DNA of 26,772 nucleotides from Dehalococcoidia bacterium (GCA_023271515.1 JALPXQ010000008.1:1-26772), one strand, 5' to 3'. Positions 1 to 15,752 are shown, counted from the stretch's first letter. Numbers and translations are program-made. The notes: generated by a model not told the origin, from the letters alone.

Positions 1-476
1 AGCACTCGGTACTCGGTCGGGTGGCGGTGATTGGGGGAGGCAATACGGCTGTTGACTGCGCTCGGACGGCCAGGCGCCTTGGAGGGGAGGAGGTGAGGAT
101 CATCTACCGTCGCTCCCGGGCCGAGATGCCGGCCTTGAGCGAAGAGGTAACTGCGGTGGAGGAGGAAGGGATAGGGATAGATTTTCTGACGGCACCGGTG
201 CGATTTCTCTCTGAAGGGGGAAGGCTTACGGGGATGGAGTGCATCAGGATGAAGCTCGGGGAGCCGGATGCCAGTGGCCGGGCCCGTCCGGTCCCCATTG
301 AGGGGTCGGAGTTCAGGATGGGTGTGGATACGGTGATAGCTGCTCTGGGACAGGTGCCGGAGACCGGATTCGTCCGGGAACTCGGGATATCACTGGGGAA
401 GACGGGCACGATAGAGACTGATCCCCGTACCGGGGCGACGAGCATCGAAGGGGTATTTGCCGGGGGGACGTGGTGA
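1..476 (+). CDS. NAD(P)H-binding pyridine nucleotide-disulfide oxidoreductase domain (GltD/SudA-like), 5'-partial. It runs off the window start and forms the N-terminal module of an HdrA-like fusion. The reading frame breaks in a G6 run at 462-467.
   Basis: Motifs VAVIGGGNTAVDCARTARRLG and, after the shift, GDVVTGPAFAIDAIAAGKRAA are typical of GltD-like oxidoreductases. There is no stop upstream of position 21 in frame. This ORF ends at TGA 477-479 only because of the frame change. Confidence 0.7.
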   Translation, partial: HSVLGRVAVIGGGNTAVDCARTARRLGGEEVRIIYRRSRAEMPALSEEVTAVEEEGIGIDFLTAPVRFLSEGGRLTGMECIRMKLGEPDASGRARPVPIEGSEFRMGVDTVIAALGQVPETGFVRELGISLGKTGTIETDPRTGATSIEGVFAGGTW

Positions 477-1849
477 CTGGACCTGCCTTTGCCATCGATG
501 CCATCGCTGCGGGGAAGAGGGCGGCGCGTTCGATAGGCCGCTATCTGAATGGCGAGCCGATGGAGGTTGAGGAAGAGGAGGGCAAGCCGGAGAGGCTCTC
601 CGAGGAGGAGGTCAAGTCATTAAAGGAACAGTTTCCAGCGGAGAAGCGGGTGGAGATGGGGGAGGAACCGGTAAAAGAGAGGGTTGCTGACTTCCGAGAG
701 GTGGTCCTGGGGTATACTGAGTTGGAGGCAGTTGGGGAAGCTTCACGGTGTCTTGCAGGGCAGATAGAGGGGTGCATCGAGTGCCGGGAGTGCAAGAGGC
801 GGTGTGATGCTGGGGCGATCAATTATGAGATGAAGGATGAAACTATCCAGGTGGAGGTGGGGAACATCATCCTGGCCACTGGTTACGATCAGTTCGATCC
901 CTCGGTTATCCCGGAGTACGGATATGGAAGGTATGAGAACGTTATCACCGGGTTGGAATTTGAGCGGCTCTCAAATGCTGCCGGGCCGACGGCGGGGCAG
1001 ATACTGCTGAAGAATGGCCGGCCACCCCGGAGTGTAGCTATTATTCACTGTGTGGGCAGCCGGGATAAAAACTTTCACCAGTACTGCTCCCGGGTTTGCT
1101 GTATGTATGCTTTGAAATTTGCGCATCTGATCAGGGAGAAGACCGACGCCGAGGTATATCAGATGTACATCGACATGCGATGCTTTGGGGAGGGATATGA
1201 GGAATTTTACGAGCGTGTGGGGACCGAGGACGGGGTGAACTTTATCCGGGGGAAGGCGTCGCGGGTAACCGACCAGGCTTTGAACGAGGAGGAGGAAGGG
1301 AAGCTCATCGTCTGCGTGGAAGATACGCTGCTGGGCAATTTCATGCGGGTGCCGGTGGAGATGGTCATCCTCTGCACTGCGCTGGAGCCGAGGGCCAATG
1401 CGGAGGAGGTAGCCCGGCTCTTCTCCATCGGGCAGAGAGCGGATGGATTCTTCCTGGAGAGGCATGTCAAGCTTGCCCCAATAGCGACCATGACCGAGGG
1501 GATGTTCATTGCCGGGTGCTGCGGAGGCCCGCGGGACATCCCGGACACGGTGGCTCAAGCTAAGGCGGCCGCTTCCGATGTGTTGAGTCTGCTGGCGCGG
1601 GGCAAGGTAGGGATCGAGCCTATTGTTGCCTCGGTGGACGAGGAGGTCTGCGCTGGCTGCGGTCTGTGTGAGAAGATATGCTCCTATAGTGCGCCCTCGA
1701 TTGACAGGCTTCGGAGAGTGACGGTGGTCAACAAGGCTTTATGTAAGGGTTGCGGTGCCTGTGCCGTCACCTGCCCTTCAGGGGCGATGAGCTTAAGCCA
1801 TTTCACTCATCGCCAGATACTGGAGGAAGTGGAGGCCTTGGTCTATTAG
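470..1849 (+). CDS. hdrA: Heterodisulfide reductase subunit A-like (HdrA) portion. It contains the inserted ferredoxin domain, the remainder of the FAD domain and a C-terminal 2x[4Fe-4S] domain. It is the continuation of the upstream GltD-like ORF.
   Basis: CIECRECKRRC, ILATGYDQFDP, CVGSRD, YCSRVCCMYALKFAHLI, the C-terminal CAGCGLCEKIC...CKGCGACAVTCP cysteine clusters and FIAGCCGGPRDIP all match HdrA. The N-terminal 25 aa of this ORF (VVTGPAFAIDAIAAGKRAA) belong to the GltD-like domain of the upstream ORF. Confidence 0.8.
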   Translation: MVTGPAFAIDAIAAGKRAARSIGRYLNGEPMEVEEEEGKPERLSEEEVKSLKEQFPAEKRVEMGEEPVKERVADFREVVLGYTELEAVGEASRCLAGQIEGCIECRECKRRCDAGAINYEMKDETIQVEVGNIILATGYDQFDPSVIPEYGYGRYENVITGLEFERLSNAAGPTAGQILLKNGRPPRSVAIIHCVGSRDKNFHQYCSRVCCMYALKFAHLIREKTDAEVYQMYIDMRCFGEGYEEFYERVGTEDGVNFIRGKASRVTDQALNEEEEGKLIVCVEDTLLGNFMRVPVEMVILCTALEPRANAEEVARLFSIGQRADGFFLERHVKLAPIATMTEGMFIAGCCGGPRDIPDTVAQAKAAASDVLSLLARGKVGIEPIVASVDEEVCAGCGLCEKICSYSAPSIDRLRRVTVVNKALCKGCGACAVTCPSGAMSLSHFTHRQILEEVEALVY

Positions 1850-1918
1850 CCCCTAGAAGTGCCTCTGTGGTGGATAGCCACAATTTTGGGTCCGGCTTGT
1901 CCGGGATAGGAGGATAAA

Positions 1919-2689
1919 ATGGAGTATCGGGAAATAATCCTGCTGAAGCAGGGCGAAATGGCCAGGATCACCATCAACCGACCCCCGGTTAACGTGATGA
2001 CCTTGAACACCATAGCCGAGCTGAACCAGGCACTAGGGGGATTGAGGGAAGATCCCGAGGTCAAGGTGGTGATCATCCGGGGAAGCGGGGAGCGGGCCTT
2101 CTCCGCCGGCGTGGAGGTGGCCGACCATCTGGGCGAGAAGTTACCCTGGATGTTGGAGGAGTTTGGCCGGCTGTTTAAGTCGCTGAGGAATGTAGACAAA
2201 CCGATTGTAGCAGTGGTAAACGGCGTCGCTTTGGGAGGCGGTTGCGAGCTGGTGGCCGGGTGCGATATGGCTATCGCCTCGGACAAAGCTAAATTCGGTC
2301 AGCCGGAGATAAAGTAGGGTGTGAACCCTCCGCCGGCCAGCGTGCTTTTCCCCAAGATCATAGGGATGAAAAAGGCCCTGGAGTTGATCCTCACTGGCGA
2401 TTCCATAGATGCGTGGGAGGCGCAGAGGATAGGTCTGGTGAACAAAGTGGTCCCCCACGAAGAATTGGATCAGGCTGCGGAGGAATTCGCCAACCGACTT
2501 CTGGAGAAAAGCGGATACATACTGAAGTTGAGCCGGGAAGCCTTCTACAAGGTTAGCGAGATAAGCGACTATGAGAAGGCCCTTGACTTTATGAACTGCC
2601 GGTCGCGTAGGATCATGGAATCTGAGGACGCCGTCGAGGGACTGACCTCTTTCATCGAAAAGCGCAAGCCGGTCTGGAAAAACCGGTGA
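1919..2689 (+). pseudogene. Enoyl-CoA hydratase/isomerase (crotonase) family protein, interrupted by an in-frame TAG at 2315-2317 and split into 132 aa and 122 aa ORFs.
   Basis: The N-terminal part has the crotonase fold motifs (INRPPVNVMT, VIIRGSGERAFSAGVEV, VNGVALGGGCELVAGCDMAIA, KFGQPEIK). The C-terminal part continues in the same frame (KALELILTGD...). There is a Shine-Dalgarno site AGGAGGA upstream of ATG 1919. The TAG sits where the conserved Leu of FGQPEI-L-G is expected. Confidence 0.65.
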
Positions 2690-3806
2690 TGGCAAGTATA
2701 ATAGACGAACTGGAGCCCATCATTAATCCCCGAAGCATCGCCGTGATAGGAGCCTCAGATAATCCCGCTAAGCTGGGCTATCACTGCATGAAGAGCCTGA
2801 AAGAGAGCGGGCTTCAGTCCATATATCCCATAAATCCGCGCTCTTCGGAGATTTGGGGATTTCCGGCCTATTCCTCGCTGAGAGAGATAGATCAGGAAAT
2901 CGACCTGGCTATCGTGATTGTGCCGGCCTCTGCGGTTCCTTCAGCAATAGAGGATTGTGCCCGGAAGGGGATAAAAGGCATTGTCCTTATGACTGGTGGA
3001 TTCAGGGAAGCGGAAGATCTGGCGGGCTCCAGGATGAAATAGGTTTGCTGGCAAACAAGAGTAGAATCAGGGTGATCGGTTCCAACGCATTCGGTCCATC
3101 TAAATGCCTCCTTACCCCGGAATTCCTTGCTACTTGAGGGTAAGCCTTATAAGTCAAAGTGGCGAGATATGCCACCCTCCTTGCTGATGGAATCGGAGAA
3201 AGTAATCGGCTTTTCCAAGATCGTGGACCTAGGCAACCGATGCAAATTTTCCCAACATGCTGGAGTACCTGGCGGTGGACCTGGAGACCAGGGTGATCCT
3301 GATGTATCTCGAGGGGATAGATGATGCCCGCAGGCTTATCGAGATTGCTCGGTGAGTGGCGCCCCAAAAGCCCATAGTAGCCTTCAAGTCAGGAAAGATG
3401 ACCACTGCGGACAGAGCGGCTTATTCTCATACCGGTTCCCTGGCGGGAAAGCATAAGGTCTATCTCGCCGCTTTCAGGCAGGCCGGGATCCTGTTGGCAA
3501 GCGATTTCGAGGAATTGCTGGATATCTGACCCGAACGTTGATGCCCTCTTGTTTCTCTCTGCCTATGCCTCAGCCAACGAGCCCGTAATTAGAGCGCTCG
3601 CTGCAGTGCTGAGGGAGGAGATCGAGGCTCGCCGGAAGCCGATCCTCACCTGCTTCCCGACACCACTGCGAATCTGGGAGGAAAGGGTCGAGCTGGAGAA
3701 GAGCGGCATTCCGGTTTATGCTACGCCGGAGAGGGCGGCTAGATCTCTGGCAGGTTTGGTCTGCTACGGAGATATCCCGGCTTTGGCGCTATTCACGAAA
3801 ACTTGA
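2686..3806 (+). pseudogene. ADP-forming acetyl-CoA synthetase (acetate--CoA ligase) alpha subunit, heavily degraded. It has at least 4 to 5 frameshifts, an in-frame TGA at 3353-3355 and an apparent internal deletion of about 250 nt.
   Basis: An N-terminal CoA-binding domain is intact in ORF 2686-3042 (SIAVIGASDNPAKLGY...IVPASAVPSAIEDCARKGIKGIVLMTGGF). Homology then continues across three frames: LQDEIGLLANKSRIRVIGSN, HLNASLP, ISQSGEIC, GIGFSKIVDLGN, LEYLAVDLETRVILMYLEGIDDARRLIEIAR-TGA-VAPQKPIVAFKSGKMTTADRAAYSHTGSLAG. The C-terminal tail is in ORF 3549-3806. Total length is about 1.1 kb against about 1.4 kb expected. Confidence 0.7.
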
Positions 3807-4872
3807 ACCTCCCATATTTTTCCACCATTTTTTGGTCAATGGAAGGTCCCGTCTTGTGGATCACCTCCACTAAGTCTCTCATTTCCACATCCCTTGCAAT
3901 GCCGGTCTGGATATTCTCTCTAAAGGGGATCAGCGAGGCTTTAAGGCAGATCTGCCTTATGTCCGCGCCGCTATGACCCTCGGTCATCTGTGCCAGGTTG
4001 TCGAAATCAATATCCTCTGCCAGCGGCTTTCCCTGGAGATTCAATTCAAAAATCTTTTTCCTCGCCTGAGAATCAGGGAGAGGAACATAGATAGTCTCGT
4101 CAAATCTTCCCGGTCTAAGGGCAGCATGGTCAATGCTCCATGGCTCGTTGGTTGCCCCGATGAAGAGGAGGTTCTCATTTTTCGACTCCATCCCCTCCAT
4201 CTCCGCCAAAATCTGAGGAACAACCCGTTGCATCACCGTAGACCCGGAATCCTTCCTCTTTGGAATCAGTGCTTCAACCTCGTCAATAAAAATCACCGCT
4301 CTCTTCTGATTCCTCGCCGAAGAAAACAGCTTCGCTATATTCTGCTCACTCTCCCCGACCCACTTGCTCATAATTTCGCTCGGCTTTATGCTGAAGAATA
4401 CCGCATCCACTTCATTGGCAACCGCCTTTGCGATGTAAGTCTTGCCTGTGCCAGGGGGACCGTAGAGCAAGATTCCTCCCCCGGATCTGATCCCAAACCT
4501 CTTCGCCTCTTCAGGATATAGAAAAGGATAGATTATCTTGTTCTTGATCTCCTCTTTGATATTCTCCAGTCCTGCCACGTCGTCGAAGGTTACGGCAGGT
4601 CGTTCCTGCAAGATGAATTCTGCACCTTTTCCCCTTCCCGCAGCAGCCTCCTTTTCCTTAAGAGTGATAGACTTTGCCTTCTCCAGGAGTTTCTGGGCGT
4701 TTTCAACCCTTATCAGCTTCACCCTCCCCTGCGATTCGGAAGACGCATTAAAGAGTTGTCTGCTCGCCTGCAGGTAATAGTCTCTGGCTTTTCGCAACTC
4801 GCTTTGCGCTTCCGCCTTCATTGCCTCGGCGATATATTCTTCGGCTTTTTGAAGAAATACGTCAATGCTCAT
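3793..4872 (-). CDS. vps4: MIT-domain AAA+ ATPase, Vps4/CdvC-like (copy 1).
   Basis: It has an N-terminal three-helix MIT-like region. It has Walker A GPPGTGKT, Walker B IFIDEVE, arginine finger RPGRFDE and a Vps4-type C-terminal helix. Its start overlaps the stop of the upstream ESCRT-III-like gene. Confidence 0.85.
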   Translation of the reverse strand: MSIDVFLQKAEEYIAEAMKAEAQSELRKARDYYLQASRQLFNASSESQGRVKLIRVENAQKLLEKAKSITLKEKEAAAGRGKGAEFILQERPAVTFDDVAGLENIKEEIKNKIIYPFLYPEEAKRFGIRSGGGILLYGPPGTGKTYIAKAVANEVDAVFFSIKPSEIMSKWVGESEQNIAKLFSSARNQKRAVIFIDEVEALIPKRKDSGSTVMQRVVPQILAEMEGMESKNENLLFIGATNEPWSIDHAALRPGRFDETIYVPLPDSQARKKIFELNLQGKPLAEDIDFDNLAQMTEGHSGADIRQICLKASLIPFRENIQTGIARDVEMRDLVEVIHKTGPSIDQKMVEKYGRFKFS

Positions 4873-4875
4873 CGC

Positions 4876-5475
4876 CTACCCCTTCCGCATCATGTCCTCG
4901 ACTTCCTTGATGCCCCTGGAAATCCTCTCATCCAGGCCCTTTTCCTCAGTCTCTGCCTCCCCTTCCATTGTTTTTACAATTTCGTTGATGTCTCTATCAG
5001 AGAAACCTTCGGCACTCAAGATACCCTCGCTGGCCATGTCTAAAGTAGTGGACAACGCCTCGTCGATGCCCTCTGCCTGTGCCATCGCCTTCTCAAATTC
5101 CACCTGCATGCCGGCGATCTTTTCTACATCTGGGCCTTCGGTAATGGACTCGCTTATGTCCTTAGCAAAGGTTACAAAATCCCCGGAGATCTTGACCATC
5201 TCCCGTTGAAGTCTGGCCTCGTCCATCAGCAGGAGCATCCGCTGTCCCTTTCTTATCCGTTCCTGCAAGACCAGATATTTGGCAGCCTGCCTCTTCAAAA
5301 ACTTCTCTTCATTTAGTCTAGCCGCCTGCCTTCCCTGATCGTATATCGTCTTTTGCAGGTCCATCAGCTTCGAGATGTAGCCTTTAACCCTTGCTTTCGC
5401 CTTCCTGTACCTTATCTCCCTCTCGATCTCCTTCTCTTCCCTTGATTTTCCCTTCAACTTTTTCAATATGCCCAT
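4876..5475 (-). CDS. ESCRT-III/Snf7-like protein (copy 1). It is an all-helical protein of about 200 aa with a basic N-terminus and an acidic C-terminal tail.
   Basis: The N-terminus is MGILKKLKGKSREEK..., the sequence is predicted coiled coil, and the C-terminus is acidic (EGEAETEEKGLDERISRGIKEVEDMM, MIM-like). It is translationally coupled to the Vps4-like gene. There is a GGAG Shine-Dalgarno site 7 nt upstream of ATG 5475. Confidence 0.6.
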   Translation of the reverse strand: MGILKKLKGKSREEKEIEREIRYRKAKARVKGYISKLMDLQKTIYDQGRQAARLNEEKFLKRQAAKYLVLQERIRKGQRMLLLMDEARLQREMVKISGDFVTFAKDISESITEGPDVEKIAGMQVEFEKAMAQAEGIDEALSTTLDMASEGILSAEGFSDRDINEIVKTMEGEAETEEKGLDERISRGIKEVEDMMRKG

Positions 5476-5492
5476 TCTTTCACTCCTTTGAC

Positions 5493-5542
5493 GGGTTTAC
5501 GGTTCACGGTTCTGCATAGTCTAGAGTCTAGAGTCTAGAGTC
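5493..5542. promoter_or_regulatory. Upstream region of the ESCRT-III-like copy 1 gene. It carries a partial GGTTCACGGTTC motif followed by a (AGTCTAG)x3 heptad array, which equals three overlapping palindromic TCTAGA sites spaced 7 bp apart.
   Basis: The sequence is gggtttacggttcacggttctgcat agtctag agtctag agtctag agtc. It lies 20 to 70 nt upstream of ATG 5475 on the minus strand. Confidence 0.4.
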
Positions 5543-5561: not shown

Positions 5562-6299
5562 TCAACCTTCAGCCTTCAGCCTATCCACCTGAGTAGCTAG
5601 GATTACAGTTATATTGTCCCTTCCGTCGGTCTCTTTCGCAGAGTTTATGAGCTTCTCGCAGGCTTCATCGAGGTCTTTTGAACTTATTATGATCCGTCTT
5701 ATTTCTTCACCCCGTAAGGAATCTGTCAATCCATCAGAGCACAACAACAGATATTGACCACAAATCCGGATCTCGTAGAGGTCAGGTTTTATATCGGCAT
5801 CCGTTCCCATCACCCTGGTAATGATATTCTTTTCCGGATGATCAAAGGCCTCCTCTTCTGAGATAATACCTCTATCCACCAGTTCTTGAACGAAGGAATG
5901 GTCCTTGGTCTGCTGCTTTATCTCCTCTCCTATCAGATAAGCCCTGCTGTCGCCTATATTTGCGATCACACATCTTTCTTCTTCAATCAAGGCAGCCACC
6001 AGCGTTGTGCCCATATTACTATAGTCTGGATTTTCCCGGGCTAAACTGTATATCTCCCTATTTGTCTTCTCAAAAGCCTGCTGAAGCAGCATCCTGAAGT
6101 CAGTAATCCCCTCGCTAAATCCTTTGTTCACCGCCTCTTCCAGCTCTATCACTGCCAGCCCACTGGCAATCTCGCCGGCGCTGTGCCCGCCCAGACCGTT
6201 GGCAACGGCAAGGAGGTAAATGTCGCCGAAGCGCGTTACCGCAAGGCTATCCTCGTTATTTGCTCTCTTCCCGCTGTCAGTAAGAGATGCTATCTTCAT
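5562..6299 (-). CDS. PP2C-family (PPM) Ser/Thr protein phosphatase.
   Basis: AVANGLGGHSAGEIAS, GTTLVAALI, ANIGDSRAY and LLCSDGLTD are the conserved PPM metal-binding motifs. Its start overlaps the kinase stop by 4 nt. Confidence 0.9.
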   Translation of the reverse strand: MKIASLTDSGKRANNEDSLAVTRFGDIYLLAVANGLGGHSAGEIASGLAVIELEEAVNKGFSEGITDFRMLLQQAFEKTNREIYSLARENPDYSNMGTTLVAALIEEERCVIANIGDSRAYLIGEEIKQQTKDHSFVQELVDRGIISEEEAFDHPEKNIITRVMGTDADIKPDLYEIRICGQYLLLCSDGLTDSLRGEEIRRIIISSKDLDEACEKLINSAKETDGRDNITVILATQVDRLKAEG

Positions 6300-8548
6300 C
6301 CTTCTGTCCTCGCTTTGCGGATAATTCTATCCATATCGTTTAATCTACGGGGTTCTAATGTTGGATCACGATGCTTAATGCAATGATTAAGGACACCGAT
6401 TTGCTGGTCGATCAAATCCTGTGTCTCACTGGATTTCACCTGGGTTTTTAAGGAATTCAGGTAATCGATACATTTGTTCAGCGCACTCAAGCGCGTCTCA
6501 CGATGTTCCGAGCTGCTATATGCCTGTCGTAAGAGCATATCCGACATCTCGCAATAGAGCGTTATTCTCTCCAGTCGTTCTATGGTTATCTTCACCTTTT
6601 GTTTGTGTTCTATTTCCAGAACGTCTGCCAAGTGATTATGGAGCTCTTCTATGCTCTGGTAGCGCCTCTCCTTTTCCTTCTCCAGACAGCGCATGATTAC
6701 AGGTTCGACGAATTTAGCTTCCTGGTTAATGCTTGAGGGTAAGGGAGGATCGTGCTTCTTTATTTTCTCCATTATGGCAGATTCATCGGCGGCTTCAAAG
6801 GGAGGCTTGCCGGTTACCAGCTCATAGAATATCTGACCGAGCTGGAATATGTCGGTTCTTCCATCTACCTTCCCTCCGCTTATCTGCTCCGGCGTGGCAT
6901 AGAGGGTAGTGTATCCTCTGGCTTGATCATCTGACTGCTTTGAAGCCCGTATCATCTTTGCCAGCCCCCAATCCACGATTTTCGGCTCCTTATTACCATC
7001 AAGCATGATATTGCCAGGCTTCAGGTCGAGGTGAAATACAGGTCGCGGTCTTCCATGAGCATATCTTAAGCCATCTGCTATCTTGAAGATCAGATGACCC
7101 GCTTTTCTCGGATCAAGCGGTATCAAATCCTCAATCGAGCCAGCCAGAAGCTCCATCTCGATATATGGCCTGGGATAAGAGCTATAGTCGTATATCGTGG
7201 CTATGTTCTTGTGATCGAGTTCCTTCCAGATTTGTATTTCGTCTATAAAGCTCTTGGCGGTCTTTTTATCATGGTACCTGGCGATCTTTATGGCCACCAT
7301 GGCACTGTCCTTCTTCCGCTGTGCGCGGTACACCCAGGAACTTCCACCCTCGCCGACGTATTTAGGTTGATGATAGTATTCATGGAGCTCCTCCGGAAAG
7401 GCGAACATCGGTTGGCCTTTTCTTATGCCAGGTCCAACTGCGGGTTCCAATGTTATATCCTCAACCTTTATTGGCTTTCGTACCTCGTCGCCTTTTGCGA
7501 CAGCGCTCCTTGCGCGGACCAGAGTATCGGTGCACAACCTTATATTTGCTGTGCAGGCATCAGTTGACTTTTCGATCCTTGTCTTTTCCTCTTCCAGACC
7601 GTGTTCGGCAGCAAGCTCACGAATGCCGTCGAAGTGTGTCTGAGCATTCCTGTATTGGTCTCTTGCTTTGAGGTATTCTCCCTTGTTGAACCACTTCTCG
7701 GCATCCTCGATTAGCCCGTTCCCGATTTCAATCTTTCCCTCCACCAAGCCTCTGTATGCCGTTGTTTTCAATTGGTTGTAGGTTGCGTTATCCGAGGAGA
7801 ACGATTCCAGGTACTTTATCACTTCTGAGAAGGCATTCTCCTTTTCCTTGCCTTTTTCCTTATTGGCCTGCTCGATTAACTTATCTCCCTTGTGCAGGAG
7901 GCATGCCTCGATGCTAACCTCCATGTTTGCTACTGCTCGATTGATCGTTGGCTCGTCCTCAAACCCGAATTTGCCTGCAACCCCAGCGCCTTTTGCATAC
8001 GTCTCTCTCGCTGACCGGAATCCTTCTCTGGCAGCATCGAAATCTCCTGCCTCAAACATTCTTTTCGCCTCGTTCACGGTCTTGTTTGCCTCATCAACGA
8101 GTGCAGCCATCTCTTTCCGGGCTCTGTTTACCGCAGCAGTCTTTATATCTTTCTCGATGCTTCCCATAGAGGGTTTAAGAGCCTCAACTATCTCCCCCTC
8201 GTTCCTTTCGCTCGCCAACTGCACCACACGGGTGTATTCTTCGAGAGCCCTTTCCCAGAGCGTTATGGCTTCTGAGTAATCTTCTCTCTGGTATGCCTCG
8301 CTGCCATCGTCGGCTATCTTTTTCGCTCTATCCAGAAGATATTCGGTAGTGGGTCTAGCGGCCAGTTGGGCCTTCTTGGTCAGCTCCAGCGCTCTTGCGA
8401 ACTCCTTCTTCTTCACCGATTCCGCCGCTTCCTTGAGGAGGCTCCTTGCCTCATCCAGGTTGGCGCCTATATGGTGCTGATTTATCAGACCTCTAGCAAC
8501 CTCCACTTCCTTGTGCAGCCCTTCGAGTTCTTTCACAATACTGCCCAT
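6296..8548 (-). CDS. Hanks-type Ser/Thr protein kinase with an N-terminal helical-repeat region of about 380 aa and a C-terminal tail of about 100 aa.
   Basis: The kinase domain spans about 6600-7400. Motifs are GEGGSSWVY, VAIK, HLDLKPGNIM, DWGLAK (a DFG variant) and YATPEQ. The start is ATG 8548 or TTG 8551, with GGAGG 8 nt upstream. Confidence 0.9.
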   Translation of the reverse strand: MGSIVKELEGLHKEVEVARGLINQHHIGANLDEARSLLKEAAESVKKKEFARALELTKKAQLAARPTTEYLLDRAKKIADDGSEAYQREDYSEAITLWERALEEYTRVVQLASERNEGEIVEALKPSMGSIEKDIKTAAVNRARKEMAALVDEANKTVNEAKRMFEAGDFDAAREGFRSARETYAKGAGVAGKFGFEDEPTINRAVANMEVSIEACLLHKGDKLIEQANKEKGKEKENAFSEVIKYLESFSSDNATYNQLKTTAYRGLVEGKIEIGNGLIEDAEKWFNKGEYLKARDQYRNAQTHFDGIRELAAEHGLEEEKTRIEKSTDACTANIRLCTDTLVRARSAVAKGDEVRKPIKVEDITLEPAVGPGIRKGQPMFAFPEELHEYYHQPKYVGEGGSSWVYRAQRKKDSAMVAIKIARYHDKKTAKSFIDEIQIWKELDHKNIATIYDYSSYPRPYIEMELLAGSIEDLIPLDPRKAGHLIFKIADGLRYAHGRPRPVFHLDLKPGNIMLDGNKEPKIVDWGLAKMIRASKQSDDQARGYTTLYATPEQISGGKVDGRTDIFQLGQIFYELVTGKPPFEAADESAIMEKIKKHDPPLPSSINQEAKFVEPVIMRCLEKEKERRYQSIEELHNHLADVLEIEHKQKVKITIERLERITLYCEMSDMLLRQAYSSSEHRETRLSALNKCIDYLNSLKTQVKSSETQDLIDQQIGVLNHCIKHRDPTLEPRRLNDMDRIIRKARTEG

Positions 8549-8553
8549 CAATT

Positions 8554-9735
8554 CTACCTCCTGCCTTGATTTACAACCTCATCTATCATCTCAAGAATCG
8601 CTCTCTTTTTCCTTTCAATCTCCTCCCTCTCGGCCTTCTTCTTTCGCCCGTAGGAAAAAATGCCTATTGACAGGATCACGGCAAAAGCAAGTGTCCCCAC
8701 GTAGATGTGATTGTTATTGATCGTCGGTGCAAAGTCTCTATAGTTGACCACGCCGTCTTGATCCAGGTCCATGGCAAGAGACTTTGCCCTTGTTGCCATC
8801 TCAAATGCCGTTTTATAATCTGCATCCTCAAATGCCTCCTCACTACCTGAAAGCAAAGCCTCGGCCATGGCTACATTGAATCCTCGTAGCTCTGCTACTC
8901 TAATTGCCTCCCTTGCCTGGTCGATCCCTTCAATGGCCAGTTCACCGTCTCTTTTAATCGTTTCTGCCGTAGTCTTTGCCTGCTCAGCAAGGGTTTTGGC
9001 GCGTCCAAAATGCCCTCCTGCAAGCGCCCTCTCGGCCTGCCGAAGAAGACCCTCAGCCTCTGTCATATCGAGCCCTTCGGCTCTCCCCCTTTGAATCGCT
9101 TTGGCGATCTCTTCAATGATAGCGGCAATTAGTGCTTCTTCCGATTCAACCTTTATCAGCCAGAGATCACTCTCACCTGCGCCAAAAGACATTGTCCAAC
9201 CGGTTACGATAAATCCGCCGTCATCGGTCTGCTGGACTGAGAGGCCCGAATCACTTTTTGCGCCACCGAATGTGCGGCTCCACTCCTTATTCCCCGCAGA
9301 ATCGGTCTTTATCAGCCAGAGATCCGACTCACCTGCGCCGAAAGACCCTGTCGTTCCGGTTACGATAAACCCGCCGTCAACCGTCTGCTGGACTGAGCAG
9401 CCCCAATCCCTGGCTGTGCCACCGAACGTGCGGCTCCACTGCTTATTACCCGCAGGATCGGTCTTTATCAGCCAGAGATCCGACTCACCTGCGCCAAAAG
9501 AGCGTGTCCAACCGGTTATGATAAATCCGCCGTCAGTTGTCTGCTGGACTGAGAGGCCCCGATCAGATTCTGCGCCACCAAATGTGCGGCTCCACTCCTT
9601 TGCCGGCGCTCGCTCTGTGGTCTCGTCAGCCACGGCCACGCCTACGAGAGGGAAAGGGAACGCCGTTACCAGCGCGGCAACCATAAGCACCACTGCCACC
9701 CCAAACAGGATTGGTGTCAGACTTTTCATGATCAA
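8554..9735 (-). CDS. Type-I membrane surface protein. It has a signal peptide, 3 tandem blade-like repeats of about 47 aa, a helical repeat, a DxDGVVN motif, a C-terminal TM helix and a conserved basic cytoplasmic tail.
   Basis: There is an N-terminal hydrophobic signal. There are three copies of [42 protein letters not shown]. The C-terminus is [55 protein letters not shown]. Confidence 0.75.
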
Positions 9736-9769
9736 AACCTCCCTGAAGATTCTTAGCGCCTCCCCCTAC

Positions 9770-10012
9770 TCATTTCCCCATTTCCCTCTCAATCCCTCTC
9801 TCCCAAATGTGCTTTGCCTCTTCAATGCTTTCATCACTGATTTTAACACTCTTCCAGATTCCTCGAAGAGAGATCACCTCCCCCTCTGGTGGAGTTTTCT
9901 GGGGCTCCCCATGAAGGATTTGCATTCTTACTCGCTCGTTCTCTCTTAAGCCAACTTTGTCCAGAAGTTTGATCACCCCTTTTTGATAGATGCCCTCTAT
10001 GACCTCGGCCAT
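9770..10012 (-). CDS. Small DUF104-like protein (archaeal antitoxin-like), orphan.
   Basis: The N-terminus MAEVIEGIYQKGVIKLLDKVGLRENERVRMQI resembles archaeal DUF104 antitoxin-type proteins. There is a GGAGGT Shine-Dalgarno site 7 nt upstream of the ATG. There is no PIN or other toxin partner adjacent. Confidence 0.45.
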   Translation of the reverse strand: MAEVIEGIYQKGVIKLLDKVGLRENERVRMQILHGEPQKTPPEGEVISLRGIWKSVKISDESIEEAKHIWERGIEREMGK

Positions 10013-10042
10013 TTTCGTTACCTCCGCTAGTTTTTGCCCACA

Positions 10043-11653
10043 CTACCCCCTGCCCTCATTTACAACCTCATCTATCATCTCAAGAATCGCTCTCTCTTTC
10101 CTTTCAATCTCCTCCTTCTCGGCCTTCTTCCGTCGGCGGCGAAAAGAAACGCCTGCTGATGCAGAGATAAGGCCCAGGACAAGAAGAAATGCTCCCATGT
10201 AGATATGATTGTTGTTGATCGTCGGTGCAAAGTCTTCATGGTTGACCACGCCGTCCCGATCCACATCTAAGGCAAGCGATTTTGCGGTTGCGGCCAGTTC
10301 TACCGCTCTTTCATACTCTCTATCATCAAATGCGCTCTCAGCCTGAGAAAGCGAGCTTTCGGCCTCCACAACATCGAAACCTTTTGCCCTTTCCTGAGAG
10401 ATTACCTGCCTTGCTTCTTCGATAGAGCTTCTTGCCAGTCTCAGTTCTCTGGTAATTTCTTCCGCTTTTGCCTTTGCCTGCCGGGCAAGGCTTATGGCTC
10501 CTCCAAAATCCCCTCCTGCAAGTGTCTCCTCAGCCTGCGAAAGTACACCCTCCGCCTCGGTCATATCGAGTCGTTTGTCTATCCCCTCCTCGATTGCATC
10601 CCTGGCCTGGTTGATCGCATCAAGCGCTGCCTGAGCTTCCCCTTTTACCTCTCGTGCGGTAACCTCTGCCTGCTGGGCAAGGCTCATGGCTTCTCCATAA
10701 TCCCCTCCTGCAAGCGCCCTCTCGGCCTGCCGCAGGAGATCCTCAGCCTCAGCCATATCGAGCCCTTCGGCTCTGCCTGTTGTTATTGCCTCCTTTGCTT
10801 GCTCGATCTGCTCCAGTGCCGCTGCCCTTCTAATCCCTTCTACCTTAGCCTCTGCCTGCTGGGCAAGGCTTATGGCTTGTTCAAAATCCCCTCCTGCAAG
10901 TGCCCGCTCGGCCTGCCGAAGGAGACGCTCGGCGTCTGTCATATCAAGCCCTTCGGCTGTTCTGGCTTCGATTACTTCTCTTGCTTTGTCGATCTCTTCA
11001 ATCGCTGCTTCAGCATCCTCTTTAATGCCTTCTGCTTTAGTCTTTGCCTGCTCAGCAAGGCTTACGGCTCTTTCAAAATCGTCTGCTGCAAGCGCCCTCT
11101 CGGCCTGCCGGAGGATATCCTCAGCTTCAGCCATGTTGAGCCCTTCGGCTCTCCCGGCTTCGATTGCCTCCCTTGCCTGGGCGATGGCATTGATGGCAAA
11201 TTGAGGCATGGGGATTTCAACAAGGTTATGGTGGATGATCTGCGCGGCATGCTGGACTATTATCCGCGGCCGCACCCTATCGGCGAGGATAGAAACCTCG
11301 CCCGGGACTTGAATAAGGTTATGGTGGATGATCTGCGCGGCATGCTGGATTATAATGCGGGGCATCACCTCACCTGCGAGGCTCACCAGGGTCTCCGCAG
11401 GCTCCACAAGGTCAAATTCTTGCACGCTGTCGGCGTCTTCCACGACAATCTCAGGGCCGCTTGCGGCATGCACCCTGGAATTTACCGCCAGATATGCCGA
11501 TACGGCCAGCACCAACGCGGCCAGAATCAAGACCATCAGGGGGATTCTCCCCCTGAAACCCCCTGAAGAGCGGTCATCCTTAGGATTTTTAAAGGAGCTT
11601 CGCTCCTTTATTCTCCAGGGCGGTTTACACTGGTTTATCCTTATCCTGAACAA
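10043..11653 (-). CDS. Type-I membrane surface protein, paralog of 8554-9735. It has a signal anchor, a 2x 31-aa tandem repeat and 5 helical repeats of about 37 aa. It ends with a DxDGVVN motif, a TM helix and the conserved tail.
   Basis: The C-terminus [72 protein letters not shown] is nearly identical to the upstream paralog at the DNA level. It contains repeats of the form [32 protein letters not shown]. The true start may be the internal Met near 11536 (MVLILAALVLAVSAYLA). Confidence 0.7.
   Translation of the reverse strand: MFRIRINQCKPPWRIKERSSFKNPKDDRSSGGFRGRIPLMVLILAALVLAVSAYLAVNSRVHAASGPEIVVEDADSVQEFDLVEPAETLVSLAGEVMPRIIIQHAAQIIHHNLIQVPGEVSILADRVRPRIIVQHAAQIIHHNLVEIPMPQFAINAIAQAREAIEAGRAEGLNMAEAEDILRQAERALAADDFERAVSLAEQAKTKAEGIKEDAEAAIEEIDKAREVIEARTAEGLDMTDAERLLRQAERALAGGDFEQAISLAQQAEAKVEGIRRAAALEQIEQAKEAITTGRAEGLDMAEAEDLLRQAERALAGGDYGEAMSLAQQAEVTAREVKGEAQAALDAINQARDAIEEGIDKRLDMTEAEGVLSQAEETLAGGDFGGAISLARQAKAKAEEITRELRLARSSIEEARQVISQERAKGFDVVEAESSLSQAESAFDDREYERAVELAATAKSLALDVDRDGVVNHEDFAPTINNNHIYMGAFLLVLGLISASAGVSFRRRRKKAEKEEIERKERAILEMIDEVVNEGRG
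11222..11407. repeat. 93-bp tandem direct repeat (2 copies) within surface protein gene 10043-11653.
   Basis: aaggttatggtggatgatctgcgcggcatgctgga occurs at 11222 and 11315. It encodes the duplicated 31-aa segment PRIIIQHAAQIIHHNL. Confidence 0.8.
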
Positions 11654-11814
11654 AGGTTCACCTCCCGTCGCGAGCGCATGCCCGAGATGGCAATCATGCC
11701 TTGTCCATCAGTCTAAAGGGTGGAGCAAAGACCAGGTTCATCCCTCTCGGTAGACAAGGACGATAGCAAATGATCCTGCCCACACCCTCGCGATTTGGTG
11801 GAACACATCTGGCC

Positions 11815-12513
11815 TTAGCTGAGCCGGTGAGAGTGTTCCATGTGAGTCTGCTCCCGCAACTCGCTCTCCATCAATATTAAGGGGGGGGGGTCGGTCATGA
11901 ACGACCTCTCAAAGACGGTTAAGGCCCCGGGTATCTTGAGGTTAAAGCTGTCATGGTCAACAATGATCATCATCCTATCAGCATCGGGGTGTCTGAAGTC
12001 GTAGTGTTTTACCTCGGCAATACCCACTCCAGCAGCCGTGGTTACCTGCATCAGTACTCTCTCCAGCCTTGTGCTGCCCAAATCCCCCAGGTCAATTATC
12101 CTGGCTACCGGATGCTCGCGGCCATAAAAGGCCACTATCCAACCATTCCGGTGGAGAAAGACATGTGCATCCCACTCTTCGTCGTGCCCAGGCACTCCGA
12201 CTGAGCCGATAATGTATTCATCCGTCTCGCGCTCTATCGTTCTGAATGCCCCCCTTGCCCTCACCAGATCAATCTCCCGGCCCACATTGGTAAAGGCCGA
12301 GATTCCCGCCTGCTCCTCAAGGAAATTGGCCCCCGCTGTTCCGGCGGCAAACGCCGGCCGCGCCAGGGTGATCAGTCCGGATATTCCGGCCGCCGCGCGG
12401 GGAGTCTCGCCGCCCCCCGCCCCGGAACCCGGTGGGATAAAGACCGGAACCGCGGCAACGATCACCGCCAGGACTACCAAAGCCCCACCAATCCTCCAGA
12501 TATGCTTCCTCAT
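11815..12513 (-). CDS. Secreted or membrane-anchored protein of unknown function, with an N-terminal TM or signal sequence.
   Basis: It is a 232 aa ORF with a hydrophobic N-terminus (GGALVVLAVIVAAVPVFI). It contains a G10 homopolymer at 11881-11890 that encodes PPP near the C-terminus. Confidence 0.5.
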   Translation of the reverse strand: MRKHIWRIGGALVVLAVIVAAVPVFIPPGSGAGGGETPRAAAGISGLITLARPAFAAGTAGANFLEEQAGISAFTNVGREIDLVRARGAFRTIERETDEYIIGSVGVPGHDEEWDAHVFLHRNGWIVAFYGREHPVARIIDLGDLGSTRLERVLMQVTTAAGVGIAEVKHYDFRHPDADRMMIIVDHDSFNLKIPGALTVFERSFMTDPPPLILMESELREQTHMEHSHRLS

Positions 12514-12595
12514 GGTTTACCTCCCTAAAATAGAGATTTTGCTTGGTCTGATCAGACATGCTTTTACACGATGCCCCTCCTCGTATCCATCGCCG

Positions 12596-15500
12596 TCAGG
12601 CAGCTCGTCTTTTTATGAGTAAGACGATCAGTCCTAGCGCTGCAATTCCGGCTGCGATCCACGGGTTCGCCTGAACAAGCTGAATAAGCTGAGCAAGTAG
12701 TCTTTCACCAATGCGAAGTAGTCTTTCGCCAATATCAAGTAGTCTTTCACCAATGTCTGGTGCCTGGGGCAAGACCACCTCGACTATTGTTGAGAAACTA
12801 TTTATCACCCCATCGTTATCTGCTATCGTCAGTGTTACCATATAGTCTCCAGCAACTGAAAAGCTATGCTCGATTACCCTACCAGTTCCAGTGGTTCCAT
12901 CCCCAAAGTCCCATTCATAGGATATTATCTCGCCATCAGGGTCAGACGAACCAGACGCATCGAAGGTGATGGGCTGATCTACAATCATCTCCTCCGGGGA
13001 GTATGCAAAAGATGCGATTGGTTGTTGAAGCATTCTCTGTTCCTCAAATACCCCGTCGCCATCAGCATCCGTCTTCATGGTAACCCCTGCCTGGACGGGA
13101 ACTTCTGTATCAATAACAAATCGGTGTGTTGTAGTCTCTGTCGTGGGGACATCAGTAATAGCAAAACTCTCAATTTGTCCTTCCACGCTAGAAATCGTTG
13201 TTAATCGATATGTTGCCTCCTCTATACCTGCAACCTCTAAGTAATAGATGCCAGTTGGAGCAAATATAGTAACAATCTTATTTTCCGTATCATACATTGA
13301 ATATGGAATTTCTTCTTTTACTACTCCATCTACTAAACCAGTAACTCGTCCCTGAGAATCGTAAACCCGTAACTCTCCAGGACTGGCAAATGCTACAACT
13401 CTGAGGTCAGCAGGCAATATATTCAGAAATTCTCTTCTGATAAAATGTGCTGCGATATTCTTGTGAGAATCCATCCTGATAGTGGTAACGGGTGCATGTA
13501 CATCTGCAATAGTCCCAACATCTCCTTTCCAACCAACAAACTTCCAACCTGGAGCAGGATATGCCCTAATTTCTACTTGTTTTAGTTCTCCTCTAGGAAA
13601 AATAGTATCTCCAGGTTTATTAACTGTCCCCTCGCCAATAATATCCATTGAAAGTGTTACATCTTCGGAAATGAAGGTAACCAATGCAAACCCTATTATT
13701 GGATTCCCCCTCCAAAAATCTTGATATACACCTATTCCAAGACTTACAAGAGTATTTCCTGCAGCTCTAATAAGATTAATAGGAGCAAGGAGACGGTCTA
13801 TAACCCACCCTTTACCATACTCCCTAACTGTATCAGATTTTGCAATATCAAGTAAAAGTGGTGGTAAAGAATTAAGTACGACTTCACGCCCTTCAGGACA
13901 GAATACAATAGTTCTAGGAGTTAACACAAGCTGCCCCATCTGTAATAATGTTCTAGATTGAATATATTCTACAACTTCTTTTAAATGCTCATGATCCTCA
14001 AATTCTATATAAAGTTGTAATGCAAACTTAGGTTCAGCCGGAACTCCAAATACTCCTAATGCTGCTGATAATAATTCCATTGCTATTGCAACGTGCACTA
14101 TCGCCATTTCAACTTCCAATATATCTCCAGGTAGAAGAGTATTAAGCTTCACCGTGTATGTTACGCTTCCCTTAGGAGGGACTAGTCTAAAATAATTACC
14201 AAAACTTTCTTTCTGAAGATGTTCCATAAAGCCATCTATACTTTCTAAAGTTACATCTTCCCTAATAAACCGAGGTTTAAATTCAACCCACATATCTAAA
14301 GAGTTGTGTACAGTTAGCTCAACAATGCGCTTCTCCTCATCGACATATATAGGAGCAGATCCCCTTATACGCCAATCATCACCGCTAATTTTAAAAAACG
14401 CTGTTTTATATGGTAGTGCCGGCGGGGTGACTTCTAGTGCCTCGGTGAAGGTCCTTGAAGCCAGGTGCCGATCCCCAGCATCTATCCTGCCGTTGTTGTT
14501 GACATCCTCCACCAGAGAGACGAGCAGGTTATACCTGCCTGGGGGTGCATCTGTCGGCATTACAAACGAACGCTGGACGGTGCTGGAACCTGAAACGATG
14601 GCGACCTGGCGATCATTGGCCGGATCGCTCAGAGGCGATCTCCCGGGCAACTGGATGCTGGCCCCCAACAGAACCGTCCTTGTGGGCCCTGGATTTGCCA
14701 CGTTGTATGTAATGGTGATCGTCTCTCCGGCCGCAGCGGTGCTGGGTGACGGGTGAGCAGATGTGATTGTTGGGTCTGGTGGTGGCGCCGGCGGGGTGAC
14801 TTGTAGTGCCCCGGTGAAGGTCCTTGAAGCCAGGTGCCGATCCCCGGCATCTATCCTGCCGTTGTTGTTGACATCCTCCACCAGAGAGACGAGCAGGTTA
14901 TACCTGCCTGGGGGTGCATCTGTCGGCATTACAAACGAACGCTGGACGGTGCTGGAACCTGAAACGATGGCGACCTGGCGATCATTGGCCGGATCGCTCA
15001 GAGGCGATCTCCCGGGCAACTGGATGCTGGCCCCCAACAGAACCGTCCTTGTGGGCCCTGGATTTGCCACGTTGTATGCAATGGTGATCGTCTCTCCGGC
15101 CGTAGCCGTGCTGGGTGACGGGTGAGCAGATGTGATTGTTGGGGCTGGTGGTGGTGCCGCCAGTAGACGAAGCCTGCTGGGCGTGGAGCTGCCAATGTTG
15201 TTATTCTCATTCGATTCGGTGACTTGTTTAAAGCCATCAACAAAGACTGTCACATAGTAATCCCCCGGGGCAGGAACTGCTGATGGGATGGCGTTAGTGG
15301 TGATAGTGAGCGTTCTAGAGGCACCAGGACCGAGCGAGGCTACAGGGAAATTGCCCAAACCGTGGCGAGTTCCCCATCGACGGGTGGATAGAGAAACACG
15401 GAGGTGGAATGAGCCCGAGGCGGCATCACCCCGGTTTTTCACTGTAAAAGCAACCGAAATTTCATCGCCGTGAGCTACCTCAGCAGGGTCGAAGGTGACG

Positions 15501-15631: not shown

Positions 15632-15752
15632 GATTTCCTCCTTAATATTCTAGCACCTCTTGCAGGTCTGCTCCCACTGAATTTTCAATTCTTTTGCAAG
15701 GTAAGCGTTCAGCCAGCCTTTCCCCATTTATCCCTCCTTTGACCTTCACCCT

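Follow-up and report, generated by a model that had tools for sequence, protein, structure and literature searches.

A kinase- and phosphatase-linked gene pair of predicted ESCRT-III/Vps4 type in a Dehalococcoidia bacterium

The window analyzed here, 26,772 nt in length, is an entire contig from the single-cell genome of a Dehalococcoidia bacterium (GTDB order SZUA-161). Two genes on its minus strand form the pair under study: an ORF of 199 aa (4876-5475, ATG start), predicted to encode an ESCRT-III protein of the Snf7 clade, and an ORF of 359 aa (3793-4872, ATG start), predicted to encode a Vps4-like MIT-AAA ATPase. As an earlier note on this DNA had claimed, the two are separated by exactly 3 nt (4873-4875), the TAG stop codon of the ESCRT-III gene being followed by this spacer and then by the ATG of the ATPase gene; the stretch immediately 5′ of the ATPase start codon is GGAAGGGG. 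A Shine-Dalgarno-like AAGGAG can be read at 5483-5488 (minus strand), with 7 nt between it and the ATG of the ESCRT-III gene. More than 60 conserved relatives were found for the 199-aa protein and likewise for the 359-aa protein, and the two genes are adjacent in at least eight independent loci from different assemblies (L001, L002, L006, L007, L009, L010, L013, and L016). The pair is real and above chance level. Scans for promoters and terminators gave no signal above chance level, and no tRNA was found in the window.

Directly upstream of the ESCRT-III gene, after an 86-nt spacer, lies a gene for a PP2C Ser/Thr phosphatase of 245 aa (5562-6299, minus strand; Pfam PP2C_2, E = 4e-16). Its start is overlapped by 4 nt by the gene for a Ser/Thr protein kinase of 751 aa with an N-terminal helical-repeat region (6296-8551, minus strand; Pfam Pkinase, E = 8e-43). 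PP2C adjoins the ESCRT-III gene in seven loci (L006-L008, L010-L012, and L017), and loci L008, L010-L012, and L017 also link a kinase to the pair. Kinase and phosphatase probably belong to one operon with the pair. CdvA, Vps22/25/36, and ubiquitin-system domains, which the earlier note had described as absent nearby, were indeed not detected by Pfam (E ≤ 0.1) in the 16 large ORFs of the window, a scan that may miss divergent winged-helix domains.

In the AF2 model of the 359-aa protein (mean pLDDT 85), residues 3-76 form a three-helix bundle at the N-terminus; a disordered linker (74-85) leads to the AAA cassette, and a helix (347-354) closes the chain. The model contains no beta-domain. The bundle (4645-4866, minus strand) corresponds to a predicted MIT domain. 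As an isolated domain it matched Pfam MIT with E = 3.4e-4, under the Pfam cut-off, and the whole protein scored sub-threshold for both MIT and Vps4_C. At the level of the family, Pfam MIT was matched by 28 of 29 N-termini (best E 8e-8), and a profile built from these N-termini retrieved solved MIT domains from the PDB, including those of Vps4A and Vps4B. The AAA cassette and lid (residues 88-328; 3889-4611, minus strand) were delimited by motif reading and alignment to yeast Vps4, and the protein matched Pfam AAA with E = 1e-43. Walker A (GPPGTGKT), Walker B (FIDEVE), pore loop 1 (SKWVGESE), and the SRH (LRPGRFD) are all recognizable; pore loop 1 differs from the yeast SKWMGESE in a single residue, whereas the SRH reads RRF/SRF in yeast and Thermococcus Vps4. 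The terminal helix (3811-3834, minus strand) appears to be of the Vps4_C type (Pfam Vps4_C, E = 0.012), a model matched by 32 of 38 relatives. Both the MIT domain and the C-terminal helix had been proposed from the sequence beforehand, and model and family agree with the proposal. Since Vps4_C also ends the D2 domain of Cdc48, this match cannot tell Vps4 from Cdc48 D2.

Several comparisons bear on that distinction. The 359-aa protein aligned collinearly, MIT domain included, with the verified yeast Vps4 (37% identity, 210 bits), a similarity about equal to that of its cassette to p97 D2, the nearest solved cassette (228 bits). Matches of the model in Foldseek were dominated by p97, so that Foldseek is unable to part Vps4 from Cdc48 D2. 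The NCBIfam model for CdvC aligned over its full length (residues 8-355 on model positions 9-363) but scored 258 bits where the equivalog cut-off is 650, and the protein is thus not a CdvC orthologue; scores for CdvC, CDC48, and PAN were non-discriminating for the window ATPase and likewise for the Vps4-type ATPase of a Thermococcus locus. In a neighbor-joining (NJ) tree the 359-aa protein fell with the Vps4 of yeast and Thermococcus, and Cdc48 D1 and D2 stood separate (bootstrap 67). The earlier note had suggested placing the AAA domain among Vps4/CdvC, katanin, and spastin; the tree is small, samples Vps4 and Cdc48 but not PAN, FtsH, katanin, or CdvC, and gives a tentative placement. The sequence comparisons support classification of the protein as a Vps4-like MIT-AAA ATPase.

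The 199-aa protein belongs to a small family, which makes up 218 clusters in a set of 1.84 billion proteins. Among close relatives 26 of 36 matched Pfam Snf7, and among the distant members 40 of 103 did so (best E 1.5e-11); PspA_IM30 was matched by only one of the 103 (E = 0.002). The window protein itself did not match the PspA_IM30 profile and scored 12.2 bits against Snf7 (PF03357; E = 0.14), under the cut-off of 27.3, with the sub-threshold alignment covering residues 29-178. Searching the PDB by sequence, with the protein alone and with its family profile, returned nothing. The AF2 model (mean pLDDT 79.7) is all-helical (helices 12-53, 57-113, 117-149, and 160-198), and the predicted fold, a helical hairpin (helices 1 and 2/3) followed by the shorter helices 4 and 5, has the ESCRT-III layout. 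In Foldseek the best match was the CdvB2 filament, which was not significant, and the top matches include closed CdvB and CHMP2A-CHMP3. Residues 1-100 are basic (pI 10.3, net charge +14) and residues 101-199 acidic (pI 4.2, net charge −15). An all-helical ESCRT-III-like protein of about 200 aa with this charge distribution is what the earlier note had described, and the outcome it had named as speaking against such a protein, PspA/Vipp1 or an unrelated coiled coil, was not obtained.

The family-conserved C-terminal motif of the 199-aa protein, E..LDERIsKGikevE.mM, falls within a putative MIM1-like helix (residues ~178-199, E..LDERISRGIKEVEDMMRKG; 4879-4944, minus strand). This helix is the most conserved C-terminal block of the family, with E178, D182, I185, and M196 invariant and R184, G188, and E193 conserved to at least 90%. 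The MIM1 consensus is (D/E)xxLxxRLxxL(K/R); the LDERIsKGik block resembles it, but one additional residue precedes the last hydrophobic position. At the other end, the basic segment MGILKKLKGKS (5443-5475, minus strand), read from the sequence, contains an invariant K10 and a nearly invariant S11. It is a possible membrane-binding helix 0, by analogy with the N-terminal motifs of ESCRT-III proteins (PMC7619361). Identification of the protein as a divergent Snf7-type ESCRT-III is supported by its family; as the window proteins themselves lie below Pfam thresholds, the ESCRT-III/Vps4 case leans on family-level and transitive evidence.

Makarova et al. (2024; PMC11188069) described a euryarchaeal 'Main' clade of loci combining Vps4 and ESCRT-III with a Ser/Thr kinase and a phosphatase; in their survey, genes for a kinase, a phosphatase, and SPFH-zinc-ribbon proteins accompany euryarchaeal ESCRT genes, beyond the TACK and Asgard archaea. 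The second criterion of that survey is a Vps4 coded beside the ESCRT-III gene, which is the arrangement found here. The neighbourhood that the earlier note had called 'very different' from CdvABC or Asgard clusters has a precedent in the euryarchaeal loci; neither the type of neighbourhood nor the basic identity of the genes is new. In a 'Main'-clade example, plasmid NZ_CP014751 of Thermococcus peptonophilus, the ESCRT-III protein shares 48% identity with the 199-aa protein, PP2C lies directly upstream of ESCRT-III, a kinase and an MIT-AAA ATPase are part of the cluster, and relatives of a 209-aa protein of the window are present. Gene order differs (kinase-Vps4-PP2C-ESCRT-III in Thermococcus, kinase-PP2C-ESCRT-III-ATPase in the window), as do the ATPases, with only 34% identity and different SRH motifs. 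Relatives of the Thermococcus 607-aa coiled-coil and 172-aa proteins were not found in the window at the sequence level, where remote folds could escape; the two fit the descriptions of arCOG09748 (coiled coil plus winged helix) and arCOG08177 (Cas2-like plus DUF3568) in Makarova et al. (2024). A further difference from the 'Main' clade is the host, which is a bacterium.

CdvABC of TACK archaea shares with the window an ESCRT-III protein and an MIT-AAA Vps4 without beta-domain, a domain that crenarchaeal Vps4 is not known to have. The CdvC model aligns full-length, and Foldseek placed CdvB2 and CdvB first for the small protein. In contrast to CdvABC, CdvA (PRC barrel plus helical region) was not found in any large ORF of the window, the ESCRT-III protein lacks a winged-helix extension, its C-terminal motif is MIM1-like instead of the proline-rich MIM2 reported for CdvB, and the CdvC score is far under the equivalog cut-off. 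With the eukaryotic and Asgard systems the window shares the collinear MIT-AAA architecture of yeast Vps4, a near-identical pore loop 1, and a putative leucine-type MIM1-like C-terminal helix; it differs in that Pfam detected no ESCRT-I, ESCRT-II, or ubiquitin genes nearby, and in that the ATPase has no beta-domain and an SRH of the LRPGRFD type. Bacterial PspA and Vipp1 are membrane-acting and have the fold of the same ESCRT-III superfamily (PMC8281802, PMC7619361), but the window family matches Snf7, not PspA_IM30, and is coupled to an MIT-AAA ATPase.

We consider it likely that the genes constitute a euryarchaeal-type, kinase/phosphatase-associated ESCRT-III/Vps4 membrane-remodelling module in the chromosome of a Dehalococcoidia bacterium. 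What the analysis shows is how the genes are built and which domains they encode, to which families they belong, that their linkage is conserved, and that the host is bacterial. From systems characterised in archaea and eukaryotes one can propose how polymerisation, MIM-MIT contact, and phospho-regulation might proceed. The 199-aa protein would polymerise with its basic N-terminal half on the cytoplasmic face of the membrane, and the MIM1-like helix that ends its acidic C-terminal half would recruit the MIT domain of the ATPase. As a hexamer, the ATPase would thread subunits through its central pore (pore loop SKWVGES), and the resulting turnover of the polymer could lead to membrane deformation, scission, or repair. 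The kinase and PP2C encoded upstream would most likely toggle assembly by phosphorylation. As to its cellular role, vesicle formation or membrane repair appears more probable than cell division, by analogy with archaea that also have FtsZ.

The pair sits in the chromosome of a Dehalococcoidia bacterium. It is present in at least ten other single-cell genomes, and its junction with metabolic genes of Chloroflexota type is common to three separate single-cell contigs, L006 and L007 being collinear with the window across it. For the enoyl-CoA hydratase in the flank, every named relative is from Chloroflexota, one of them on a 2.3-Mb Dehalococcoidales contig, and bacterial marker genes assign the AH-958 genomes to the Dehalococcoidia order SZUA-161 (PMC10570749). 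Relatives also occur in independent bins labelled Dehalococcoidia, Chloroflexi, and Planctomycetes. On the other hand, the closest relative outside the population (75%) is from a Hydrothermarchaeales bin, amplified single-cell assemblies are sometimes chimeric, and L006 departs from the window sequence upstream of PP2C; the locus could be archaeal DNA wrongly assigned to bacterial genomes because cells were sorted together, amplification produced chimeras, or contigs were mis-binned. Given the recurring junction, the number of genomes, the Chloroflexota flank, and the marker-gene placement, contamination of the single-cell genomes was judged unlikely, and a host other than a bacterium is in our view very improbable. 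Horizontal acquisition of the module from archaea is probable: the ESCRT-III gene is nested among archaeal sequences in an NJ tree, and GC content is 0.48-0.49 in the locus as compared to 0.55-0.60 in the flank. The proposed direction of transfer leans on this rough tree and on the record titles of metagenome bins.

Other readings of the pair concern its biochemistry or its use. On one of them the pair is no ESCRT module: the small protein would be a stress protein, either of PspA/Vipp1 type or a generic coiled coil, and the ATPase an unfoldase like Cdc48 whose helical N-domain is unrelated, as the sub-threshold Snf7 score of the window protein and the p97 D2 matches of the cassette would allow. 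We regard this as highly improbable in view of the 48% identity to the ESCRT-III of the Thermococcus locus, the MIT matches among the N-termini, the collinear yeast Vps4 alignment, and the grouping with Vps4 in the tree; its PspA part was rejected on the ratio of Snf7 to PspA_IM30 matches among family members (40 to 1 of 103). A Cdv-like role in division of the host is likewise highly improbable. TACK archaea divide by ESCRT-III/Vps4 (PMC11188069), but the Pfam scan of the window gave no CdvA-like gene, euryarchaeal systems of the same type occur alongside FtsZ and are not believed to serve division, and the gene content 5′ of PP2C varies among single-cell genomes of one population, which makes an essential division machine unlikely. 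The same variability, together with the lower GC of the locus, would fit a conflict or defence island with unchanged biochemistry, in which a kinase signal on phage or other envelope attack would cause ESCRT-III to repair the membrane or to shed its infected parts. Compatible with such an island are further products of the window, namely a transglutaminase/CDC48_N protein, CARDB/PKD surface proteins, and a second kinase, and the PADLOC models IetA (AAA) and PD-T4-6 (kinase) were matched. However, these PADLOC matches reflect generic AAA and kinase domains, with none for the ESCRT-III protein; no relatives were found in a search of a phage collection, neither a nuclease nor any other recognised effector domain turned up, and the same gene set in archaeal loci is read in the literature as vesicle or protein-sorting systems. 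A defence function is unlikely.

For the membrane-remodelling module, the new element is the bacterial host, i.e. a known kind of locus in an unexpected domain of life. ESCRT-III/Vps4 is held to be archaeal and eukaryotic, with bacteria thought to be limited to the PspA/Vipp1 branch without Vps4; a 2025 review states that a Vps4-like ATPase appears absent in bacteria (PMC7619361), and a 2024 survey of ESCRT systems found no homologues there. The locus holds a complete pair of Snf7-type ESCRT-III and MIT-Vps4 with kinase and phosphatase partners, repeated across many single cells. It suggests that the module is able to cross a domain boundary, widens the kinase-associated ESCRT class of euryarchaea, and provides, with its two to four genes, a compact system for reconstitution; it also opens the question of the minimal partner set for an ESCRT machine in a foreign envelope. 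That the SZUA-161 lineage took over an archaeal ESCRT-III/Vps4 machine of Snf7 type in complete form, kinase/phosphatase switch included, and puts it to use is a conjecture to which we give slightly less than even weight. Such use may be feasible if SZUA-161 shares a trait of cultured Dehalococcoidia, which are not known to have a peptidoglycan wall. If true, it would be a bacterial case of ATP-driven ESCRT membrane scission and would contradict the current statement on Vps4-like ATPases in bacteria, and the relatives in Chloroflexi- and Planctomycetes-labelled bins would be marks of repeated transfer of the module between domains.

Further genes of the window were compared with known ESCRT loci. 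The family of the 209-aa protein, considered as ESCRT-III of a second pair, gave 6.5% probability in hhalign against the Snf7-like family and no Pfam match, so that its ESCRT-III nature is not established. When the MIT profile was aligned in hhalign to the N-terminal part of the kinase and to two repeat proteins of 536 aa and 393 aa, each a single sequence, the probability stayed below 4%. ProX, known from 'Meth_adaptin'/'Halo_adaptin' systems, was not found in the window, and those systems are described without a kinase/phosphatase pair (Makarova et al. 2024). Shared with them are an SPFH protein with zinc ribbons (20234-22048), another zinc-ribbon protein, and Ig-like CARDB/PKD surface proteins, which the window codes along with the second kinase. 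A CDC48_N/VAT_N-type domain is also common to both; in the window it is located on a separate transglutaminase protein (18356-19978) and not on the ATPase.

The putative ESCRT-III gene (4876–5475, minus strand) is an ORF of 199 aa ending in TAG, and only 3 nt separate this stop from the ATG of the 359-aa ATPase ORF (3793–4872, minus strand), so that the layout of the pair described from the sequence alone was borne out in coordinates and spacing. An AAGGAG motif lies 7 nt upstream of the ESCRT-III start codon, and the stretch GGAAGGGG immediately precedes that of the ATPase. The next genes upstream encode a PP2C phosphatase (5562–6299, minus strand; 86 nt from the ESCRT-III gene) and a Ser/Thr kinase (6296–8551, minus strand), whose gene shares 4 nt with the start of the PP2C gene. 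The minus strand carries every gene across 3793–26732. Between the PP2C and ESCRT-III genes, the spacer (5495–5541) contains two short arrays of tandem heptamers, (GACTCTA)n and (GAACCGT)n; the palindrome TCTAGA is present in the first. The window has 3 and 2 copies, against 4 and 3 in L006 and L007, two contigs of sister single-cell genomes; copy number thus varies among genomes within one population. The spacer may act as a regulatory region that varies between cells, or the variation may be plain slippage.

For the 199-aa protein alone, the Pfam Snf7 profile stayed below threshold (E = 0.14, aligned over residues 29–178), and a search of PDB sequences gave no match. The assignment was therefore made at the level of the family, the match of the lone sequence being weak. 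We collected 68 relatives of about 200 aa with 44–98% identity, and Snf7 matched 26 of the 36 examined. Searched exhaustively with a profile, 1.84 billion representatives yielded only 218 clusters, so the family is small; among its full-length distant members, Snf7 was matched by 40 of 103 (best E = 1.5 × 10−11), compared with a single match to PspA_IM30. These sequence comparisons agree with the earlier view of the protein as ESCRT-III-like.

Pfam detected a strong AAA domain and lid in the ATPase, together with weak matches to MIT (E = 0.007) and Vps4_C (E = 0.012). When the first 72 residues were searched in isolation, the MIT match improved to E = 3.4 × 10−4, and 28 of 29 N-termini of the family matched MIT (best E = 8 × 10−8). 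Among solved MIT domains, a profile of these N-termini matched that of an oomycete chitin synthase (E = 2 × 10−5) and, with weaker scores, those of Vps4A, Vps4B, yeast Vps4 and calpain-7, which upholds the claimed MIT domain. In the AlphaFold model (pLDDT 85), a three-helix bundle is followed by a disordered linker, the AAA fold and a last helix, and a beta-domain insertion is lacking. The proposed C-terminal helix is thus present in the model, and Vps4_C is matched by 32 of 38 relatives, although this profile is not discriminating because Cdc48 D2 sequences match it as well.

By both sequence (228 bits for that domain) and structure, the nearest solved relative of the AAA cassette is p97 D2. 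Yeast Vps4 (reference sequence identical to PDB 5uie_A) aligns collinearly with the ATPase from the MIT domain through the lid (37% identity, 210 bits), with pore loop 1 reading SKWVGESE in the window and SKWMGESE in yeast; Thermococcus Vps4 aligns more poorly with the yeast protein (31%, 177 bits). The CdvC HMM aligned over the full length at 258 bits, far under its equivalog cut-off. In a neighbor-joining tree of AAA cores, the ATPase family, the family of a second ATPase in the window, and yeast and Thermococcus Vps4 grouped together (bootstrap 67), separate from archaeal Cdc48 D1 and D2. The tree thus lends moderate support to a placement with Vps4, its sampling being limited. Operationally, Vps4 proteins are recognized in the field by an MIT domain or by an ESCRT-III neighbor (PMC11188069); the 359-aa protein has both and qualifies as a Vps4-family ATPase.

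The pair is therefore an ESCRT-III/Vps4 module of a known kind. A CdvABC system was rejected since no CdvA was found among the large ORFs of the window and the CdvC score falls below the equivalog level. The gene set of kinase, Vps4, PP2C and ESCRT-III is that of the euryarchaeal ‘Main’ clade, including Thermococcales (PMC11188069). On a plasmid of Thermococcus peptonophilus, genes for a kinase, an MIT-AAA ATPase and PP2C stand in a row with one for a 188-aa protein, whose 48% identity to the 199-aa protein further ties the latter to ESCRT-III. The neighborhood, first described as very different from known ones, is indeed unlike the Cdv and Asgard arrangements, but in 2024 ESCRT genes of euryarchaea were already reported in association with a kinase, a phosphatase and SPFH-zinc-ribbon proteins (PMC11188069). 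The module does not fit the ‘Main’ clade cleanly, because sequence comparison revealed no arCOG09748- or arCOG08177-like genes in the window and the ATPase of the module shares only 34% identity with that of Thermococcus.

What is unexpected is the bacterial host, an unusual phyletic position for such a pair. According to a 2024 survey, no ESCRT homologues can be identified in bacteria, and a 2025 review states that a Vps4-like ATPase appears absent there; one comparative study describes Vps4-like ATPases transferred to bacteria, with the snf7 gene displaced. A full-text literature search for Vps4 together with Dehalococcoidia returned nothing relevant. The window proteins match exactly NCBI entries MCL0059161–MCL0059177, encoded on a 26,772-bp contig from a single-cell genome labeled ‘Dehalococcoidia bacterium’, and the same project yielded at least 10 further single-cell genomes with the pair. 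We take the host to be a bacterium, and contamination to be an unlikely source of the locus, because (i) the junction of the pair with the metabolic genes (1–3800) is also found, collinear with the window, in two sister single-cell contigs; (ii) the named relatives of the intact flanking enoyl-CoA hydratase are all Chloroflexota, one on a 2.3-Mb Dehalococcoidales contig; and (iii) in an independent study, bacterial single-copy genes place the ‘AH-958 group’ in the Dehalococcoidia order SZUA-161, family SpSt-899 (PMC10570749). A rough tree of ESCRT-III family members shows those of Dehalococcoidia nested among archaeal sequences (Hydrothermarchaeales, Halobacteriota, Methanoperedens and Thermococcus), and GC content drops from 0.55–0.60 in the flank to 0.48–0.49 in the locus. 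Acquisition of the module from archaea would fit both observations. The 49-kb Thermococcus peptonophilus plasmid (NZ_CP014751; locus at 15642–27331), which holds the full kinase/Vps4/PP2C/ESCRT-III locus as well as Cas2-like and coiled-coil partner genes, is a possible vehicle of such modules between lineages.

In the window itself, the enoyl-CoA hydratase gene (1919–2689, plus strand) is broken by an in-frame TAG at 2315–2317, and the adjacent CoA-binding gene (2686–3806, plus strand) is split across several frames, whereas both are whole in L006 (12831–13601 and 11947–12834). These may be pseudogenes, assembly errors or true differences between cells. L006 is 95–97% identical to the window in the part they share. 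Upstream of PP2C, however, L006 retains just the final 113 codons of the gene for the 751-aa kinase, and the genes beyond differ (L006 1–9148 compared with window 6638–15500). Either the locus thus varies within the population or one assembly is chimeric. A dip in GC content to 0.40 was seen at 13001–14000, within the gene of a 1011-aa CARDB/PKD surface protein (0.48–0.60 otherwise).

The ESCRT-III and ATPase genes are also neighbors in a JGI metagenome, in two more single-cell genomes and in bins labeled uncultured Halobacteria, Methanoperedens, Dehalococcoidia and Planctomycetes; in a Hydrothermarchaeales bin the pair is adjacent with one intervening stretch. PP2C lies upstream of the ESCRT-III gene in seven loci, usually with a kinase close by, and a zinc-ribbon SPFH protein is likewise recurrent. 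A second pair comprises a 209-aa helical protein (17114–17743, minus strand) encoded upstream of a 418-aa AAA ATPase (15753–17009, minus strand), whose N-terminus (residues ~15–85) reads like an MIT three-helix domain, with no MIT call by Pfam. It was found again in four loci (L010, L011, L016 and L003), and the Thermococcus ESCRT locus holds two paralogues of the 209-aa protein. The N-termini of the 209-aa and 199-aa proteins are similar (MGILDKIKG versus MGILKKLKG); hhalign gave no link between the 209-aa and Snf7-like families (probability 6.5%). The MIT-AAA ATPase has a sister subfamily (54–55% identical) in L003, from a bin labeled Chloroflexi, and in the Logan contig L005. This subfamily has no adjacent Snf7-like gene in either; its surroundings encode numerous Ser/Thr kinases in fusion with FGE-sulfatase, PQQ or WD40 propellers. 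At a distance of 8 kb, L003 also carries three genes grouped on their own, encoding a 209-aa-like, an AAA and a Snf7-like (201 aa) protein.

By analogy with characterised systems (PMC7619361; PMC11188069), we infer four steps: the ESCRT-III protein would polymerise on the inner face of the membrane; its C-terminal helix would recruit the MIT domain of the ATPase; the hexameric ATPase would pull subunits through its pore, remodelling polymer and membrane; and the kinase and phosphatase, presumably co-transcribed, would probably gate assembly. Euryarchaeal systems of the same type occur together with FtsZ, and vesicle formation or sorting has been proposed as their function (PMC11188069); vesicle budding or membrane repair would therefore be the more likely role.

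Helical repeats of the form A..ll.eA...l..GdfeeA make up the N-terminus of the kinase (residues 1–380) as well as a 393-aa (8554–9735, minus strand) and a 536-aa protein (10043–11653, minus strand). The latter passed Pfam DUF4398 in four stretches (E = 3 × 10−15) and barely reached the NRBF2_MIT cut-off (29.2 bits). Comparison of the MIT profile with all three by hhalign, using single-sequence targets, gave probabilities below 4%. In eukaryotes, ULK3 is a precedent for a kinase docking on ESCRT-III; if the repeats were MIT-like arrays, docking of the kinase on ESCRT-III would recall it. Finally, a 540-aa protein (18356–19978, minus strand) joins a transglutaminase-like core (residues 68–126) to a C-terminal CDC48_N/VAT_N-type domain (457–535), an unusual combination beside AAA ATPases.
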